Shown here: positions 10,679 to 51,296 of the stretch, piece by piece
Position numbering within the stretch: the first letter of the stretch is position 1
How the letters are laid out: every line of letters starts with the position of its first letter
Source: Planctomycetota bacterium
Lineage (GTDB): Bacteria; Planctomycetota; MHYJ01; JACQXL01; CAKKQI01
DNA: 54,168 bases
Assembly: GCA_030633885.1 (NCBI GenBank)
Contig: DAOWBV010000001.1
Location: 1 to 54,168 of the forward strand
Reading direction: 5' to 3'
Notes under the pieces: generated by a model
Told to the model about the DNA's origin: nothing
What the model saw: the letters and a program-made list of their open reading frames with translations, nothing else
The model's database searches: none
Translations under genes and position numbers: made by a program

Positions 10679-10890
10679 TTACTCTCCTTTTACTACACCG
10701 GGCAATAAATTAATATTTCGGCTGAGTAGAAGATACTTTGGGTTCGGAAACCAAGTTGATTATTTGCGTCAGAGGAAGACGTTGATAGCCAAAACCCCGG
10801 CCAGCGGTTAATCCAGCCGAGAAAACCGGGTCACGGACCGGTTGGTCACCACGCATAATAGATACAGATAGAACCATCTTTAATCGTAAA

Positions 10891-11011
10891 CCCCGTTAGA
10901 GATAGGTCGTCCATTCGGAACGACCGTTGTTTGGGATATTCTCTAAGGGCGGTTTTTGTATTTCCTATGTCTAAATATTTTCGTTAGAAATTTTAACCAT
11001 CTCTAACGGGG
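10891..11011 (-). mobile_element. MITE-like TIR element (CCCCGTTAGAGAT family), copy in the rplL-rpoB spacer
   Basis: CCCCGTTAGAGAT at 10891-10903 and ATCTCTAACGGGG at 10999-11011 are a perfect 13-nt inverted repeat. The element is flanked by direct TAAA at 10887-10890 and 11012-11015. A subterminal hairpin GGTCGTCC-attc-GGAACGACC next to the left end on the plus strand orients the element with the minus-strand genes. Confidence 0.8.
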
Positions 11012-11068
11012 TAAAGGCATTGATTAACCTGTCGCTTGCGGCTCAGGTAGAGTCAAGGGTCTGTCCGG

Positions 11069-13731: not shown

Positions 13732-14587
13732 CACGTTGATGATGCAAAATAATTCTCTTCGTCCCTATCTGAAATTCGCTCAAACCATTGCCCGACAAGC
13801 GGGTAAAAATCTCCACCGAATTATCCAAAAAAAGAATCGGATCGTGGCTTTTAAGGAAAGCTCGACCGACTTGGTAACCGAAGCGGACCGGTTAACGGAA
13901 AAATTTCTGATAAAAAAAATAAGATCTCGTTACCCCGACCACACGATCATCTCCGAAGAGAGCGCCGGTTCGCTTAACCAAAAAAGTTCGCACGCGGAGT
14001 TCAAATGGGTGTTGGATCCGCTGGACGGGACGACCAATTACGCCCATCAATACCCCTGTTACGCGGTCTCCATCGCCCTGTTAAAAGGCAACGAGCCCAT
14101 AATGGGCGTAGTTTATAATCCGAATCTGGATGAACTGTTCTACGGAACTAAAAATGGCGGTTCATTCCTGAACGGTCGGCGCCTGCGCATTTCCCGGGTA
14201 AAAAAACTGGTCCGGAGTTTCCTGGCGACAGGTTTTTCCTATGACCTGAAAACCAACCCGGGGAGAACATTTGTTTACTTCAAAAAATTCTGTCTTTCGG
14301 CCCAGGCCCTGCGTCGGGCCGGGTCAGCTGCTTTGGACCTGTGCTACCTGGCCGCCGGCCGGTTCGATGGGTTCTGGGAACGGGATCTCCATATCTGGGA
14401 TGTGGCCGCGGCCCAGGTGATCCTGGAAGAGGCGGGCGGGAAATTGACCCATTGGAACGGAAAAAAATATATCCTTGACCTGCCGAAAACAAATAACAGA
14501 AAAAAATACGAGGGAAAACAAACAAACGGCAGTCTGGCAAGTAATGGTTACATCCATAAGCAGATGATGCGGGTACTCAAGAAGTAG
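13709..14587 (+). CDS. suhB: inositol monophosphatase family protein (SuhB-like)
   Basis: 292-aa ORF with the IMPase motifs EESAG, WVLDPLDGTTNYAH and a WD.AA metal/substrate motif. The start may be the ATG at 13739. Confidence 0.85.
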   Translation: MSLKNSRITLMMQNNSLRPYLKFAQTIARQAGKNLHRIIQKKNRIVAFKESSTDLVTEADRLTEKFLIKKIRSRYPDHTIISEESAGSLNQKSSHAEFKWVLDPLDGTTNYAHQYPCYAVSIALLKGNEPIMGVVYNPNLDELFYGTKNGGSFLNGRRLRISRVKKLVRSFLATGFSYDLKTNPGRTFVYFKKFCLSAQALRRAGSAALDLCYLAAGRFDGFWERDLHIWDVAAAQVILEEAGGKLTHWNGKKYILDLPKTNNRKKYEGKQTNGSLASNGYIHKQMMRVLKK

Positions 14588-14635
14588 CTGCGACCCTTAC
14601 GGTCGCTTCGAAGCGGGGTCAAGCCCCGCAGCTAC
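14584..14635. repeat. REPIN-like doublet (two inverted REP-like hairpins with GTAG heads)
   Basis: GTAGCTGCG-ACC-cttac-GGT-CGC, a ttcgaa spacer, then GCG-GGG-tcaag-CCC-CGCAGCTAC. The two halves are inverted copies of GTAGCTGCG(NNN)CTT(NN)(NNN)CGC. The repeat overlaps the suhB stop codon (TAG 14585-87). Confidence 0.7.
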
Positions 14636-18930: not shown

Positions 18931-19536
18931 ATGAAAAATAATGGGTTTACCCCGTTAAAGATCAGGAAAATTTTTGCTAAAAGTATTTGGGACCTGGCAA
19001 CTAAACAAACCTTCGTTAGAAACTATACAATGCCGCGGTCGTTCCGGAAGAACGACCTATCTCTAACGGGGTTTACCCTAATCGAACTATTAGTCGTAAT
19101 AGGTATTATTGCCATCCTGGCCGGATTAATTATTCCCAACCTGATCGGCGTCCAGGGCAGCGCGGCCGAAGCTGGCGCCCGGACCGAGATCGCCGGTCTG
19201 GTCGAGGCCCTGACTATGTATGAAATGGATAACGGCGCCTACCCGGCCCACGATTCCAGCTTCTCCAGCCTGGTTCTGATCAACGAACTCAGCGGCGATC
19301 GCAACACGGATCCGCCGAAACCACGTTATTTTTCGTTTAAGAAAAAAAGAATTGAAGACAATTGGTATTACAGTCCCCTGAACTTTCCGTATTTTTATCA
19401 GGAAAACGCGTCAGACCCGGACAACATGACCGGCAAACATCACCCGCCTCATGATCCGGAAACGTTTGACATCTGGACGCGCAGCCGCAAAGATACCAAA
19501 GATGGTCTGAAAGACGGATTAAACAGTTGGAATTAA
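18931..19536 (+). CDS. GspG/PulG-like major pseudopilin with an element-expanded leader
   Basis: The ATG at 18931 lies 7 nt after GGAGA (the longest ORF starts at 18916). It reads MKNNGFT, then a 42-codon in-frame insertion, then GFTLIELLVVIGIIAILAGLIIPNL...EALTMYEMDNGAYP, a class III signal plus GspG-like body. An internal in-frame ATG lies at 19030. Confidence 0.85.
   Translation: MKNNGFTPLKIRKIFAKSIWDLATKQTFVRNYTMPRSFRKNDLSLTGFTLIELLVVIGIIAILAGLIIPNLIGVQGSAAEAGARTEIAGLVEALTMYEMDNGAYPAHDSSFSSLVLINELSGDRNTDPPKPRYFSFKKKRIEDNWYYSPLNFPYFYQENASDPDNMTGKHHPPHDPETFDIWTRSRKDTKDGLKDGLNSWN
18950..19071 (+). mobile_element. MITE-like TIR element, copy inside the pseudopilin 1 leader
   Basis: CCCCGTTAAAGAT (18950-62) and ATCTCTAACGGGG (19059-71), with direct TTTA at 18946-49 and 19072-75. 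Element plus one duplication is 126 nt, which is in frame. The subterminal hairpin is GGTCGTTCC-gga-AGAACGACC. Confidence 0.8.
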
Positions 19537-19540
19537 CCTG

Positions 19541-20323
19541 ATGAAGAATTCAGCGGGGTTCGTTCCGAATAAACCAAAAGAAGTATTAGTCCACGGTCCC
19601 TTCCCGCCTCTTTGGAGCGAGGCTCGCCCAACAAAGTTGGGCGGCGGGTTCACCCCGTTAGAAATCACTGAAATTTCCAATACAAGTAATGCAATAAACA
19701 TGCAAAACAAACAAATCCGTGACAGAAAGTATGCTATGCAACGGTCGTCACGACCGGACGACCTACCCCGACATAACGGTCGGGGCGGGTCTCTAACGGG
19801 GTTCGCTGAACGCGGTCCCTTCGGGTTCACCATTTTAGAATTATTGGTCATCATAACCGTTATTCTGGTTCTGACCACGATTACCGTCGTCGCTTTGGGC
19901 TCCCTGGGTGAAAAAGGTAATGTCACAGCAACTGAAGGATTAATCAAAAGCATCGAAATTGCCCTGACCAATTACAAAGAGGTTTTTCCGGAATACCCGC
20001 CCAGCGACCAGAGAACCTGGAAAGGATCTCAAAATCTTTATCACTACCTGACCAAAAAACTTGAGTATCACATGTTTTTCGATCCGGTCCTGGGAACTTC
20101 GGAGAAAAAAGAATTCCACGCCGGATTACGTTTTAAAAAACAGTATTTGGATCATGAAAAATACGTAATTGATCCCTGGGGTAACCGGCTAACTTACAAA
20201 AATCCCGGAACAAACCACCGGTCAAGCGGTGGCAAAAACAATAGTTCTTACGTGGATATTGAATCCAATGGTCCAAGCGCTGCGCCGGACGATAATATCA
20301 ACAACTGGTCTTTAAATAAGTGA
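19541..20323 (+). CDS. pseudopilin (G-like) with a 95-residue composite leader
   Basis: MKNSAGF, then 89 inserted residues, then GFTILELLVIITVILVLTTITVVALG. GGGTTC occurs four times in frame (19556, 19646, 19799, 19823). Only the last is followed by the hydrophobic helix with Glu at +5. Confidence 0.8.
   Translation: MKNSAGFVPNKPKEVLVHGPFPPLWSEARPTKLGGGFTPLEITEISNTSNAINMQNKQIRDRKYAMQRSSRPDDLPRHNGRGGSLTGFAERGPFGFTILELLVIITVILVLTTITVVALGSLGEKGNVTATEGLIKSIEIALTNYKEVFPEYPPSDQRTWKGSQNLYHYLTKKLEYHMFFDPVLGTSEKKEFHAGLRFKKQYLDHEKYVIDPWGNRLTYKNPGTNHRSSGGKNNSSYVDIESNGPSAAPDDNINNWSLNK
19556..19828 (+). repeat. tandem in-frame insertions between four GGGTTC repeats in the pseudopilin 2 leader
   Basis: Three units of 90 nt (19556-19645, carrying the GC palindrome and the hairpin GCCCAAC-aaa-GTTGGGC), 153 nt (carrying the TIR element) and 24 nt (19799-19822). 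The first and third units share GGGGTTCG...CGGTCCCTTC. Confidence 0.75.
19653..19801 (+). mobile_element. MITE-like TIR element, long variant, inside the pseudopilin 2 leader
   Basis: CCCCGTTAGAAAT (19653-65) and GTCTCTAACGGGG (ending at 19801). Flanks are TTCA (19649-52) and TTCG (19802-05). It has two internal hairpins (GGTCGTC...GACGACC and CCCCGAC-ataac-GGTCGGGG) and in-frame ATGs at 19700 and 19736. Confidence 0.8.
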
Positions 20324-20438
20324 GTTGTCAGGATATTTCTCCGACAGCTCACTCTGAGTGATAACGAAGGATCAATAAGGTTTTTTAACTCTTTAAGTTT
20401 CAGGATGATCTTGTATTGAAATAAAAAAACCGGGTTCA

Positions 20439-20610
20439 CCTCGTTAGAGATCACTGAAACCTGCCCGATTGTCCTGTCAGGCGGGTTTCCATTAAAAGTA
20501 TTTTAAACATGCAAAATAAACAAATCCGTGCCAGAAAATATGCTATGCAACGGTCGTCCCGACCGGACGACCTATCCCGACATAACGGTCGGGGTGGGTC
20601 TTTAACGGGG
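20439..20610 (+). mobile_element. MITE-like TIR element, long variant, separating the vestigial leader from pseudopilin 3
   Basis: CCTCGTTAGAGAT (20439-51) and GTCTTTAACGGGG (ending at 20610), with direct TTCA at 20435-38 and 20611-14. Length plus duplication is 176 nt, which is out of frame. In the upstream frame it carries TAA at 20504-06, and ATGs at 20509 and 20545 in the pilin frame. Confidence 0.8.
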
Positions 20611-21159
20611 TTCACCCTGATCGAACTGATAGTGGTCATCAGTATTATTGTCCTCATGACCTCCATCTCTATGGTTTTTGTTTCCAAATTCATCAAAAGC
20701 GAAAATCTTAAACATGGCGGATTGATTCTCCGGACAACTTTTATGAAAGTCCGCCAGTTAGCCGCTACCCAACGGATCATGCACTTTCTGGTTTTCGAAC
20801 CGAATACCTCTTCAATGACTATATATAAAGACATTAATGAAAATCAAACCTGGGACAAGAATACCGATGAACAAGTCGATGAAACTATTGGATTACCAGA
20901 AGGGATCAGTTTTTTGAGCGGGCCTGATGGTCCGCCGCTTTTTAATTTACCTGAGCCGTACCTGTACCTGGGCTTCCGGACGGACGCCTCCCTGATGATG
21001 CCAACCGGTATTTCTGATCAGTCCTTGGTCCACCCGCCCAAAATCAAGGAAACGGATATTGTTCTGAAACAGAAAAACCAACCGAAAACAAAAATGTATA
21101 TTGACTTCGAACGCGGAACCGCTAAAATAAGAGTGCTGTTTTTATACACGGAAAAATAA
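20509..21159 (+). CDS. GspH/FimT-like minor pseudopilin initiating inside the element
   Basis: MQNKQIRARKYAMQRSSRPDDLSRHNGRGGSLTG|FTLIELIVVISIIVLMTSISMVF, followed by a GspH-like body. All residues before the Gly-Phe cleavage motif are encoded by the inserted element. Confidence 0.8.
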   Translation: MQNKQIRARKYAMQRSSRPDDLSRHNGRGGSLTGFTLIELIVVISIIVLMTSISMVFVSKFIKSENLKHGGLILRTTFMKVRQLAATQRIMHFLVFEPNTSSMTIYKDINENQTWDKNTDEQVDETIGLPEGISFLSGPDGPPLFNLPEPYLYLGFRTDASLMMPTGISDQSLVHPPKIKETDIVLKQKNQPKTKMYIDFERGTAKIRVLFLYTEK

Positions 21160-21161
21160 TT

Positions 21162-21854
21162 ATGGATCATCAAAAAGGGCTCACCCTTATCGAAATCCTG
21201 ATTGCCATGATCATTCTCTCCGTGGGACTGATCATGGTCCTGACCATTTTTCCCGTCGGTATCCGAAGCACCAAAGAATCCACCGAGGATACTTATGCCG
21301 CTTACCTGGCCGATTCGATCGTCCAAGCTCTGACCCAGGCCATGAGGACAGCCACGTCGGAAGACCGGACCGGAAATAAAGCCGGACAAGTCACCCTGAT
21401 CCACGACGGCCTGACCGGCGCTAATGATTCCTATATCTTTGAATTACCTTTACCGGTCGATCCGCCCCTGGCTCAACCCAGATATTTTCTCTATCCCGAC
21501 CCGAATAACAACATCAAGGGTCAGCAAATCATACCACCCATTGAAAGTTTTGACGAAATATTTCACCTGGCTAACAGTCCGGTAATTGGTGACATTTTAA
21601 AAGAGGTGCGGGCCGGACCGGATCCGACTGATCCCTACGCCCAGTATGGATTTGCTTTTGTGGTCCGGCGGGTGGACGATACGCGACCGGCGACGGAAAT
21701 AGATACCAAATACACGCCGAAACCTTTTTTTGAATTCCGGATCTATATCTTCCGGGTTCCGATTCAAAGCGGCGGTAGCGGTTATGTCTCAACCGGCCCA
21801 AAAAAAATACCGCCCCCGATAAATTTTTTTATCATTCAATTAGCGGGACGATAA
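21162..21854 (+). CDS. GspI/PilV-like minor pseudopilin (uninterrupted leader)
   Basis: MDHQKG|LTLIEILIAMIILSVGLIMVLTIFPVG. This is the only gene of the five with an intact short leader. Its cleavage-site codons are GGG CTC ACC, which lack the TTYA core. Confidence 0.85.
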   Translation: MDHQKGLTLIEILIAMIILSVGLIMVLTIFPVGIRSTKESTEDTYAAYLADSIVQALTQAMRTATSEDRTGNKAGQVTLIHDGLTGANDSYIFELPLPVDPPLAQPRYFLYPDPNNNIKGQQIIPPIESFDEIFHLANSPVIGDILKEVRAGPDPTDPYAQYGFAFVVRRVDDTRPATEIDTKYTPKPFFEFRIYIFRVPIQSGGSGYVSTGPKKIPPPINFFIIQLAGR

Positions 21855-21858
21855 AAAT

Positions 21859-21948
21859 ATGGCAAGAAATAATAACGGTTTTACCCCGTTAGAGATCACG
21901 AAAACCTGCCCGACTGTCCGGCAGGCAGGTCAGGCGGGTCTCCATTAA
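21859..21948 (+). other. mini-ORF containing the ancestral prepilin leader of pseudopilin 5
   Basis: The ATG at 21859 lies 4 nt after the stop of the preceding gene. It reads MARNNNGFT, then runs into the element (PLEITKTCPTVRQAGQAGLH) and stops at TAA 21946-48, 13 nt before the ATG at 21962. Confidence 0.55.
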
Positions 21949-22039
21949 AAGTATTTTAACCATGCAAATTAAACAAGTTTTTGTTAGAACACAATCAATG
22001 CGACGGTCGTCCCGAAAAGACGACCTATCTCTAGCGGGG
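21884..22039 (+). mobile_element. MITE-like TIR element separating the ancestral leader from pseudopilin 5
   Basis: CCCCGTTAGAGAT (21884-96) and ATCTCTAGCGGGG (22027-39), with direct TTTA at 21880-83 and 22040-43. Length plus duplication is 160 nt, which is out of frame. It holds a nested CCTGCC...GGCAGG palindrome and the hairpin GGTCGTCCC-gaaaa-GACGACC. Confidence 0.8.
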
Positions 22040-22732
22040 TTTACCTTGCTGGAATTAATGGTCGCCGTTGGTCTGATGGTCCTGATCATGAGCATCGTCG
22101 CGATGATATTTTCTCAGACTTCCCGGGTCTATACCAACAGCGTGGACCGAATGAATATTTACGCTTCCGCCCGGGCGGTCTGTGACAGGATCACCACTGA
22201 CCTGAACGGTGCTCTACCGAAAAATAACCCGCAACAATTATTTAAGATTAACAAAGGAACAACGGCTCAGGATAAAAAAGGCCGAAGTTATGATAAAGAT
22301 CAGATATCGTTTCGTACGACCACTTCGGTTTTTGGTTCGGTCCGGGTGGCGGAAGTTCGTTATTTCTTAATCCCGGAAGTTGACCTCTCAATTCTCTCTC
22401 AAGTAGCCCGGGGCGGCGCACCGGAAACAACCAAAACCAAAAGAAAACTTTACGCTCTCCGCCGAGTCGTCAATGACTTTAACGGCACCCTCACCCTGAT
22501 CGATGAAGCTAACTTATGTCATTACGTCCTGGCAATGAAGATCGAGTATTTGGATTCCGCCACCAAGCGGTATCAAGACCCCCCGCCGCTTGGTCTTTTA
22601 ATAGACAAGAATAGCCCGCCTGATAAAAAATTACCCGGGGCCATTAGGATATCTCTCCGAGTGGTGGCCGGAGCGGCCGAAAGGCAGGAACGATTGATCA
22701 GCAAAGTCATCTGTATCCCAATGGGACAATGA
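21962..22732 (+). CDS. GspJ/PilW-like minor pseudopilin initiating inside the element
   Basis: MQIKQVFVRTQSMRRSSRKDDLSLAG|FTLLELMVAVGLMVLIMSIVAMIFSQTSRVYTNSVDRMN..ARAV.DRITTDL, a GspJ/PilW-like N-terminus. A second in-frame ATG lies at 21998. Confidence 0.8.
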   Translation: MQIKQVFVRTQSMRRSSRKDDLSLAGFTLLELMVAVGLMVLIMSIVAMIFSQTSRVYTNSVDRMNIYASARAVCDRITTDLNGALPKNNPQQLFKINKGTTAQDKKGRSYDKDQISFRTTTSVFGSVRVAEVRYFLIPEVDLSILSQVARGGAPETTKTKRKLYALRRVVNDFNGTLTLIDEANLCHYVLAMKIEYLDSATKRYQDPPPLGLLIDKNSPPDKKLPGAIRISLRVVAGAAERQERLISKVICIPMGQ

Positions 22733-40172: not shown

Positions 40173-40193
40173 AATTCCCCTCTTTTACCTCTA

Positions 40194-40305
40194 CCCCGTT
40201 AGAGACCTACTGCAACCGTTACGTCGGAGTAGATCACCTTGAAATATATGCCTGTTAATCGTAATTTCAACTTTTGACCATTCTGAAAACCCGTCTCTAA
40301 CGGGG
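40194..40305 (-). mobile_element. MITE-like TIR element, copy in the rpmC-dksA spacer
   Basis: CCCCGTTAGAGAC (40194-206) and GTCTCTAACGGGG (40293-305). The right end is 1 nt from the rpmC stop codon (40307-09). Flanks TCTA and CTTA are only approximately duplicated. The subterminal hairpin (CTACT...AGTAG) has a different sequence but the same position. Confidence 0.7.
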
Positions 40306-40306
40306 C

Positions 40307-40525
40307 TTACGCTTTCTTTTCAGCGGCCGCGGGTGGGGAAAAAGAACGTTCTTTGATTACCGTCTTCATCCGGGCGATCTCTTTTTTAAGCTCCCGCACC
40401 AGGCTTGGATTCTCGACAATATCGGTCACTTGACGAAAACGTAACTTGAATAGCTCTTCTTTTAATTTGGCTATTTCCGCCTTTAGTTCTTCGTCGGTTT
40501 TCGCGCGAATATCTTTTATTTTCAT
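40307..40525 (-). CDS. rpmC: 50S ribosomal protein L29
   Basis: 72-aa ORF with IRAKTDEELKAEIAKLKEELFKLRFRQ, the typical L29 sequence. Last gene of the S10-type cluster here. Confidence 0.93.
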   Translation of the reverse strand: MKIKDIRAKTDEELKAEIAKLKEELFKLRFRQVTDIVENPSLVRELKKEIARMKTVIKERSFSPPAAAEKKA

Positions 40526-51139: not shown

Positions 51140-51156
51140 AACGGAAAGAAAAAAAT

Positions 51157-51205
51157 CCCATTAGAGCTACCGGTCGTCAAGTAAAGACGACCTACCTCTA
51201 ACGGG
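51157..51205 (+). repeat. 49-nt miniature version of the TIR element
   Basis: CCCATTAGAG (51157-66), GGTCGTC-aagtaaa-GACGACC, then CTCTAACGGG (51196-205). It consists of the two termini plus the subterminal hairpin only. It is opposite in orientation to the surrounding genes and has no clear flanking duplication. Confidence 0.65.
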
Positions 51206-51244
51206 ACAAGCGGGAAAAATTTATCAGTGAATATCTGCGAAATC

Positions 51245-51283
51245 CCTGCCTGACCGCCAAAGGCGGGTAAACCGGCAGGCAGG
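51245..51283. repeat. CCTGCCTG...CAGGCAGG nested palindrome just downstream of rpsG
   Basis: CCTGCCTG (51245-52) pairs with CAGGCAGG (51276-83), and inner CCGCC-aaa-GGCGG lies at 51254-66. Related CCTGCC...GGCAGG units occur at 52946-63, 13582-97 and nested in the pilin elements (20460-85, 21905-40). No U-tract follows on the rpsG strand. Confidence 0.7.
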
Positions 51284-51296
51284 TGTGGCTAAAAAA

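Follow-up and report, generated by a model that had tools for sequence, protein, structure and literature searches.

A widespread MITE-like family associated with a GIY-YIG nuclease gene, with a probable safe harbour at the prepilin cleavage site

Several families of small repeats with palindromic or inverted structure are found in bacterial genomes. The Rickettsia palindromic elements (RPE) are short palindromic selfish DNA that lies in frame in protein-coding genes without destroying them, and the Correia/NEMIS elements of Neisseria lie between genes, duplicate TA and are not known to have a partner gene. The IS200/IS605 and REP/RAYT systems employ HUH tyrosine enzymes and insert next to a fixed tetranucleotide with no duplication, and the piggyBac/IS1380 transposons duplicate 4 nt, TTAA, and have CCC...GGG termini. 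In the Ssn/NTS system, single-domain GIY-YIG proteins of about 94 amino acids (aa) cut single-stranded DNA beside a hairpin repeat, which flanks the gene on both sides and is scattered in hundreds of genomic copies (Chenal et al., 2025, PMC11893778). Its authors describe a layout like that of an insertion sequence (IS), with mobility only hypothesised and repeats rarely in genes (2%); they class SsnA in CDD cd10448, count Rickettsia and Wolbachia among the repeat-rich hosts, and draw a comparison with IS200/IS605, REP/RAYT and palindrome-associated elements (PMC11893778). Here we analyze a stretch of 54,168 nt from a Planctomycetota bacterium (contig DAOWBV010000001.1, hereafter the window), in which four of five consecutive pilin-like genes, located downstream of a sigma-54-type response regulator, are interrupted by a small element with inverted termini. 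Ssn/NTS is the system closest to it among those described. The best explanation, to which we give a probability of about 0.75, is that the inserts belong to a family resembling miniature inverted-repeat transposable elements (MITEs), associated with a GIY-YIG nuclease gene and having a safe harbour at the prepilin cleavage site. A first-pass annotation, made from the sequence alone, had already read them as palindromic insertions, which is essentially right, and the feature is part of this larger palindromic family. The family is very widespread and apparently undescribed; our literature searches found no description of these termini or of insertion at pilin sites.

Element copies in the window and their empty alleles

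All five pseudopilin genes encode the motif G-[FL]-T-[LI]-[LI]-E and a hydrophobic stretch after it. The copies in the interrupted genes are bounded by the termini CCCCGTTAGAGAT...ATCTCTAACGGGG, with 12-13 of 13 positions matching in each, and they lie between 4-nt repeats exactly where the first-pass annotation had placed them (Table 1). Allowing up to two mismatches, we counted 14 occurrences of the terminal string in the window, where 1.4 would be expected; none of 100 shuffles reaches 14. The window holds seven copies of 51-172 nt in 54 kb, four in pilin genes and three intergenic; because of the latter, the sequence is not a pilin-specific coding feature. When folded as a single strand, the termini form a closing stem around internal hairpins, with z-scores from -2.3 to -5.2, and in the folded element both junctions can meet at the base of one stem. 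Subterminal hairpins are located at 19037-19057, 19743-19763, 20552-20572 and 22005-22025 in copies 1 to 4, respectively. In an Rfam scan of the window, no region reached any gathering score. All junctions are reproduced at 99.7-100% identity in independent assemblies from five other samples, and are therefore not assembly artefacts, an alternative raised when the inserts were first noted and now ruled out. Contigs often break, or hold runs of N, inside copies, as expected for a multi-copy repeat.

The elements are mobile, with presence and absence alleles in near-identical strains. The 90%-identity cluster of gene 1 includes two members of 159 aa starting with MKNNGFTLIELLVV, compared with 201 aa in the window. 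Empty sites in related strains, which the first-pass annotation had proposed to look for, are found at L211 (NCBI metagenome-assembled genome (MAG) GCA_023143775.1) and L212 (an ENA scaffold from a different sample): their flanks are 98.5% identical to the window, and their gene 1 lacks exactly 126 nt, that is, the 122-nt element and one TTTA. Some more distant GspG-like orthologues are also empty (P0003, P0005 and P0006, with the N-termini MKNNRISAGFTLIELL, MLKLGKKNGFTLIELL and MRNKQGFTLIELL), and others are filled with differing versions of the element (P0004, P0008, P0011, P0052, P0062). The filled orthologues have unrelated interiors and the same peptides encoded by the ends, namely ...GFTPLEM...SLTGFTLIEI, ...GFTPFRDE...SLTGFTLIEL and ...GFTPLEFF...TLTGFTLIEL. 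The Omnitrophota locus L124 has two paralogues filled with a 53-nt copy and an empty third one (ATGAAAAAATCATTTACGTTGGTTGAA); without the element and one TTTA, the filled paralogues are collinear with the empty gene. No empty alleles of genes 2, 3 and 5 were present in their 90% clusters.

Insertion of all four copies at the same codon position, as first proposed, holds directly for copies 1, 3 and 4. Copy 2 is 24 nt off the functional site in this strain, separated from it by an in-frame segment (Table 1). This segment is absent in L212 and in the 252-aa allele P0265, where the element directly adjoins GGG TTC ACC and is bordered left and right by TTCA. In their original state, all four insertions therefore shared one codon position. 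The segment has GGTCCCTTC in common with 19595-19603 and could be a footprint or a small duplication. The gene 2 leader upstream of copy 2 (19556-19648) is likewise long and odd: it reads MKNSAGF/VPNKPKEVLVHGPFPPLWSEARPTKLGGGFT, begins after another GGGG TTCG and contains the hairpin CGCCCAAC AAAG TTGGGCG, and it may be a relic of an earlier insertion.

Copies 1 and 2 leave the frame open, adding 126 nt (42 codons) and 153 nt, respectively, and copies 3 and 4 are out of frame. Genes 3 and 5 now begin at ATGs within their elements (20509 and 21962), and the old start of gene 5 has become an ORF (open reading frame) of 29 codons whose stop lies 14 nt upstream of the new ATG. Removal of the element had been expected to restore ordinary prepilin leaders. 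This is the case for gene 1, whose empty alleles begin with MKNNGFTLIELLVV; excision of copy 3 in silico restores no start codon, as a TGA lies four codons upstream. The Pfam N_methyl motif of gene 1 is found at residues 47-67, and the N_methyl scores of genes 1, 3 and 5 (21.1, 17.4 and 16.2) are below the gathering threshold of 21.2, against 32.5 for the uninterrupted gene 4.

In the sister MAG, L211 3578-3900 aligned with window 19541-20660 lacks the body of pseudopilin gene 2. The crossover falls within the left end of copy 2 (window positions about 19656-19663) and that of copy 3 (about 20442-20449), and this loss corresponds either to a recombination deletion between copies or to an assembly collapse. 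Copies may thus drive deletions between neighbouring genes.

The window also contains a second GC-rich hairpin repeat, whose core CCGGCAGGCAGGT has nine matches (up to two mismatches) against 0.8 expected. It forms the hairpin module nested in the copies of genes 3 and 5 (20457-20488 and 21902-21939) and stands alone between genes at 51245-51284, with weaker matches at 1573, 13579, 45596 and 52944; similar modules adjoin element termini in L094 and L104. A 52-nt imperfect palindrome occupies an intergenic site at 14584-14635, near the point at which window position 14599 is lost from the BLAST alignment to L001.

Table 1. Element copies, pseudopilin genes and associated segments of the 54-kb window, with positions counted from its first nucleotide.
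Feature	Position	Position with flanks	Strand	Size	Description
Copy 1, in pseudopilin gene 1	18950-19071	18946-19075	+	122 nt	TTTA duplicated on both sides
Copy 2, in leader of gene 2	19653-19801	19649-19805	+	149 nt	TTCA/TTCG
Copy 3, in gene 3	20439-20610	20435-20614	+	172 nt	TTCA duplication
Copy 4, in gene 5	21884-22039	21880-22043	+	156 nt	TTTA duplication
Intergenic copy, rpoB-rplL	10891-11011	10887-11015	-	121 nt	TAAA/TAAA; opposite orientation; hairpin 10905-10925
Intergenic copy, between dksA-like gene and rpmC	40194-40305	40190-40309		112 nt	TCTA/CTTA, non-identical
Intergenic mini copy	51156-51206			51 nt	TCCC...GGGA terminal variant; GGTCGTC/GACGACC hairpin
Pseudopilin gene 1, GspG-like	18931-19536		+	201 aa	46-aa leader, then G/FTLIELLVV; Pfam T2SSG 28.8 bits; NCBI name GspG
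Pseudopilin gene 2	19541-20323		+	260 aa	Long composite leader; functional G/FTILELL at 19823; Pfam T2SSG 26.4 bits
Pseudopilin gene 3	20509-21159		+	216 aa	Start and 34-aa leader element-encoded
Pseudopilin gene 4, uninterrupted	21162-21854		+	230 aa	MDHQKG/LTLIEIL via GGG CTC ACC; Pfam N_methyl 32.5 bits, residues 1-27
Pseudopilin gene 5	21962-22732		+	256 aa	Start and 26-aa leader element-encoded
Old-start remnant of gene 5	21859-21948		+		ATG..GGT TTT ACC enters element, ends at TAA 21946-21948; read from sequence
Strain-specific segment of gene 2	19802-19825		+	24 nt	TTCGCTGAACGCGGTCCCTTCGGG (FAERGPFG), in frame between copy 2 and functional Gly-Phe-Thr

The full-length GIY-YIG unit and the wider family

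We found a full-length form of the element, a unit of about 279 bp in which a single gene, encoding an 86-aa GIY-YIG nuclease, lies between inverted termini of 13-14 bp of the CCCCGTTAGAGAT type. Four copies of about 280 nt, two from Parcubacteria, one from Clostridia and one from Omnitrophota, each encode an 86-aa protein; pairwise identities among the four proteins are 57-67%, and all of them match Pfam GIY-YIG (PF01541) at 53-59 bits over their whole length. The first-pass annotation had suggested a search for an autonomous IS with the same termini. An "autonomous" form was indeed found, and it is this 279-bp unit with a GIY-YIG gene rather than a classical IS. The best solved relative of the protein is the UPF0213 protein 1zg2 (E = 1e-9). 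At least 4835 clusters make up the protein family, most of them exactly 86 aa long. Database entries call these proteins simply "GIY-YIG nuclease family protein" or "putative endonuclease", or mislabel them as "excinuclease ABC subunit C". One paper mentions in passing that GIY-YIG genes appear to have been horizontally transferred out of Patescibacteria.

The association of this gene with the termini was confirmed by a metagenome scan with peptide patterns from the middle of the protein, which is independent of the termini and gave at least 489 relatives among at least 600 stretches. Among the 80 loci kept (L131-L210), 76 have both terminal inverted repeats (TIRs), and the units measure 275-286 nt. 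The nuclease ORF begins some 10-20 nt within the left terminus and continues across the right terminus, which encodes ...LSLTG; it has no stop of its own, and the right flank usually provides one, mostly TGAA or TAAA. In these loci, the commonest flank pair is TTTA...TGAA, which is not a perfect duplication, and a change in the outermost bases of one terminus is matched at the other (TCCC...GGGA, ACCC...GGGT, GGCC...GGTC). In the nuclease ORF, the counterpart of the short-copy hairpin next to the terminus is a pair of palindromic 12-mers (GGAAGCGCTTCC). From this match, the short copies look like internal-deletion derivatives of the full-length unit. They have the features of MITEs, namely terminal inverted repeats, target duplication with empty sites, small size, multiple copies and no coding capacity.

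To delimit the family, one genome per species was scanned with the 14-nt terminal pattern TATCTCTAACGGGG, leaving the flank free. At least 119 stretches matched, more than half of them with a paired left end 28-283 nt upstream. Hosts among the matches listed include Omnitrophota, Planctomycetota, many Patescibacteria, Nitrospirota, Elusimicrobia, Riflebacteria, a Methanosarcinales MAG and others. We also considered carriage between phyla by phages and rejected it; a viral contig collection gave one mini-copy and no GIY-YIG relative.

Copy statistics were computed on 183 non-redundant copies, 114 short and 69 long. Flanking duplication extends across genomes, a test that the first reading of the window had called for: identical 4-nt flanks border 44 of the 114 short copies (7.9 +/- 2.6 expected) and 13 of the 69 long ones (3.0 +/- 1.5 expected). 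Extended inverted flanks in place of a duplication were rejected, with exact inverted flanks in 1 of 114 copies against 8.9 expected, which is rarer than chance. At the 53 non-pilin sites with perfect duplications, the duplicated positions are T (89%), T (91%), N and A (79%), followed by Y at +1 (89%; C 47%) and preceded by R at -1 (64%). The general target is thus approximately R-TTNA-Y, with 4 nt duplicated. A GGG...CCC context had been proposed as part of the target and does not survive as a general rule; at these sites a G before the duplication and a C after it are only mildly enriched, and the intergenic copies lack GGG/CCC.

The lengths of the short copies are distributed 27/28/59 modulo 3, favouring 3n+2 (chi-square p = 1.6e-4), and at such a length the element and the 4-nt duplication together leave the frame intact. 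Long non-pilin ORFs read in frame through many copies (L040, L068, L090, L101, L113, L092). In the last of these, a 59-nt copy (2227-2285) lies in frame in a translational GTPase gene of a Saccharibacteria MAG. Tandem arrays in which a new copy stands against the end of an older one and shares one 4-nt junction with it are common (L057, L065, L094, L123, L204); such tandem re-insertion had been predicted from the right junction of the window copies.

Insertion at prepilin codons and its competing explanations

The two termini are the same sequence inverted, so that the right end on the coding strand always reads ...TCT CTA ACG GGG, in either orientation. Every copy ends in ...TCTCTAACGGGG, and the right junction, TCT CTA ACG GGG/TTY A/CC, encodes Ser-Leu-Thr-Gly/Phe-Thr. 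Gly(-1) is encoded by the last GGG of the element. The duplicated nucleotides provide Phe(+1) and begin the Thr codon, and the mature pilin is unchanged. The prepilin codons GGN TTY ACN fit the TTNA target.

These features suggest the following mechanism. Short non-coding MITE-like derivatives insert at T-T-N-A (approximately R-TTNA-Y) and duplicate these 4 nt, the GIY-YIG nuclease being the probable agent of their mobilization. Insertion at the TTYA of GGN TTY ACN rebuilds the prepilin-peptidase site in front of the intact mature pilin. The old start, the old Gly-Phe-Thr and the element are thereby added to the leader, and prepilin peptidase is expected to cut all of this off. In copies that break the frame, an internal ATG would serve for a new start of translation. 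Cleavage sites of prepilins would then be among the few intragenic places where insertion is free of cost, and insertions would accumulate there. Programmed ribosomal bypass, in which ribosomes would take off and land on the repeated GGG TTY codons, was considered as well and rejected as superfluous: the frame stays open through two copies, the other two offer an ATG for restarting, and the leader would be removed in any case.

Filled pilin sites are not restricted to the window. They occur in three genes of a Riflebacteria locus (L065), including a tandem pair, in two Omnitrophota loci (L123 and L124), in several pilin-like genes of Patescibacteria-type contigs and in several protein homologues. 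Full-length copies are also present at prepilin cleavage sites, with the nuclease fused in frame to the pilin (L143 1975-2258, P0121 and P0194) in the sequence ...KNRLKRFLSLTG/FTLIELLVVIA; in three Patescibacteria-type contigs (L158, L202, L210), the fusion passes through a second mini-element. In P0133, the GIY-YIG ORF continues to ...SVTG/QAMLDYVILTAIVIAVLL, which resembles the N-terminus of a Flp-type prepilin, and other class III signals may be hit as well. A bolder proposal, which we regard as rather speculative, is that the family may constitute a minimal transposon of a new class, 279 bp long, whose sole gene product is the 86-aa GIY-YIG protein and whose termini have evolved to encode ...Ser-Leu-Thr-Gly so that, with the duplicated TTYA, insertion at prepilin Gly-Phe-Thr rebuilds the peptidase site. 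Pilin genes would in that case offer the element expression as well as a safe harbour, and in several loci the nuclease would be translated as a cleavable N-terminal "leader".

Several points weigh against a MITE-like, nuclease-associated family sheltered at the prepilin site. The flanks are non-identical in most copies, 61% of the short and 81% of the long ones, and the target consensus carries only about 7-8 bits. There is no GIY-YIG copy in this 54-kb window, and we know of no GIY-YIG nuclease with a role in transposition. Prepilin peptidase would have to process leaders of 26-59 aa. The four pilin-gene copies are mosaics of one another, which indicates some exchange between copies. Finally, four of five TTYA-bearing prepilin sites in the window are filled, compared with three of about 73 intergenic R-TTNA-Y sites (Fisher p = 1e-4), a post hoc comparison in a window chosen for this feature; fit to the consensus and neutrality may not explain all of this filling.

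That last contrast, together with the common shared-junction arrays, which fit some preference for contexts like GGGG-TTNA, may point to active site-specific targeting. The machinery would in that case prefer sites resembling its own end junction, GGGG-TTYA-CCCC, which prepilin GGG TTY ACC C mimics, and pilin genes would be hit far more often than expected from the weak TTNA consensus. The mild enrichment of G before and C after the duplication at non-pilin sites (C 47% at +1) goes in the same direction, as does the observation that, in loci fetched by the GIY-YIG gene alone, about half of the nearby pilin-like N-termini are filled. However, most sites genome-wide lack a GGG/CCC context, and six other GGTTYACC sites of the window are empty, though five of them are within genes; moreover, the window was selected because of this very pattern. 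Across genomes, about 7% of copies are at pilin-like sites, and tolerance alone predicts about 1% to a few percent by a rough estimate, which is not far from the observed share. Tolerance is certainly at work at pilin sites, and through the regenerated cleavage site it explains part or all of the enrichment that had first been described as targeting of the signal motif. Some targeting beyond tolerance is possible, and we consider active targeting as such a doubtful but still serious alternative.

It is unlikely, in our view, that the elements are moved in trans by a DDE-type transposase, for example of the IS1380/piggyBac kind, with the GIY-YIG gene as a frequent passenger. The TTNA-like 4-nt duplication and the CCC...GGG termini do recall piggyBac (TTAA; CCCTAGAAAGATA), and GIY-YIG enzymes are known as nucleases, not as strand-transferases. 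Yet about 1.06 Mb of sequence around some 190 copies contains no long TIR-bounded unit with a transposase-sized ORF, and 76 of the 80 GIY-YIG loci are exactly bounded by TIRs, with the ORF running into the right one. A classical transposase partner was sought and rejected: distant TIR pairs enclose ordinary genes or are neighbouring copies.

The mosaic structure of the window copies is what would be expected if, in place of four independent insertions, there had been one or two, later passed between the pilin paralogues when their conserved N-terminal coding regions recombined or underwent gene conversion. The copies of genes 2 and 3 are 94% identical over 110 nt and those of genes 3 and 5 are 83% identical over their left part, the filled L124 paralogues have identical 53-nt copies and identical left flanks, and L211 has a crossover between copies 2 and 3. 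This spread is nonetheless improbable, because the duplications (TTTA or TTCA), the lengths (122, 149, 172 and 156 nt) and the internal modules differ between copies, and gene 1 is polymorphic on its own. In addition, the paralogues are 63-79% identical over 63 nt of N-terminal coding sequence, a poor substrate for recombination.

Co-option, by which the inserts would be kept since a longer basic leader, an internal start or hairpins regulate translation, mRNA stability or subunit ratios, appears equally hard to sustain. Genes 3 and 5 do rely on an ATG encoded by the element, the stem-loops are stable, and filled sites recur in distant lineages, but gene 1 is both filled and empty in sister strains, the interiors are not conserved between lineages, and intergenic copies are found in both orientations. 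That there was no insertion at all, and that the segments represent a conserved long leader or an assembly artefact, is practically excluded by the empty alleles, the intergenic copies and the agreement of six independent assemblies.

If the prepilin cleavage site is indeed a safe harbour, selfish DNA can live inside genes without cost by landing on a signal-peptide cleavage site and rebuilding it. The filled and empty alleles are population-level proof of recent movement in uncultured bacteria. Anonymous 86-aa GIY-YIG genes, which number in the thousands and occur in Patescibacteria, Omnitrophota, Planctomycetota and others, are now tied to a 279-bp inverted-repeat unit and its short derivatives, and it becomes possible to test directly whether small Ssn-type GIY-YIG nucleases drive mobile repeats. 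The copies also have practical effects: they break metagenome assemblies, mislead gene callers on pilin starts and depress N_methyl scores below threshold, and automatic annotation will under-call interrupted pilins or misplace their starts.

Comparison with known systems

The resemblance to Ssn/NTS lies first in the single-domain GIY-YIG protein, of 86 aa here, whose gene is flanked on both sides (76 of 80 loci) by a repeat that has many other copies in the genome. The spacing of the catalytic tyrosines also appears to be shared (Y5/Y16 here, Y6/Y17 in SsnA), as does a glutamate near positions 62-64. In contrast, the consensus of the Ssn/NTS repeat (SRM), HGTCWYN(0-2)YYVSBRHN(0-5)WNVSBRGN(0-2)RNCYNB, matches none of the 183 copies and no site in the window. 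Instead of separate hairpins, the repeats described here are simple inverted termini that overlap the ORF, and the family further differs in its target duplications, its empty alleles and its frequent in-frame insertion in genes.

Comparison with the Rickettsia palindromic elements, made when the inserts were first noticed, proved apt. Like them, the short copies have a length bias that preserves the frame (59 of 114 at 3n+2) and are found in frame inside long ORFs, including that of a translational GTPase. Unlike them, they are found in different hosts, have a defined target duplication and an associated nuclease gene, and recur at a processing site as a hot spot.

The likeness to IS200/IS605 and REP/RAYT consists in small hairpin-rich repeats tied to a small nuclease-type protein, in an element that can be folded on one stem; the duplicated flanks and the GIY-YIG protein set the present family apart. 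It is distinguished from piggyBac/IS1380 by its target, TTNA and not TTAA, and by the lack of a DDE transposase with these termini in about 1.06 Mb. As in the Correia/NEMIS MITEs, the copies measure 50-170 nt and combine inverted termini and a short duplication with high copy number and stable hairpins, whereas the GIY-YIG partner gene and the many copies in coding regions have no counterpart there. The family resembles three kinds of known elements: MITEs, in-frame palindromes of the RPE type, and Ssn-type repeats.

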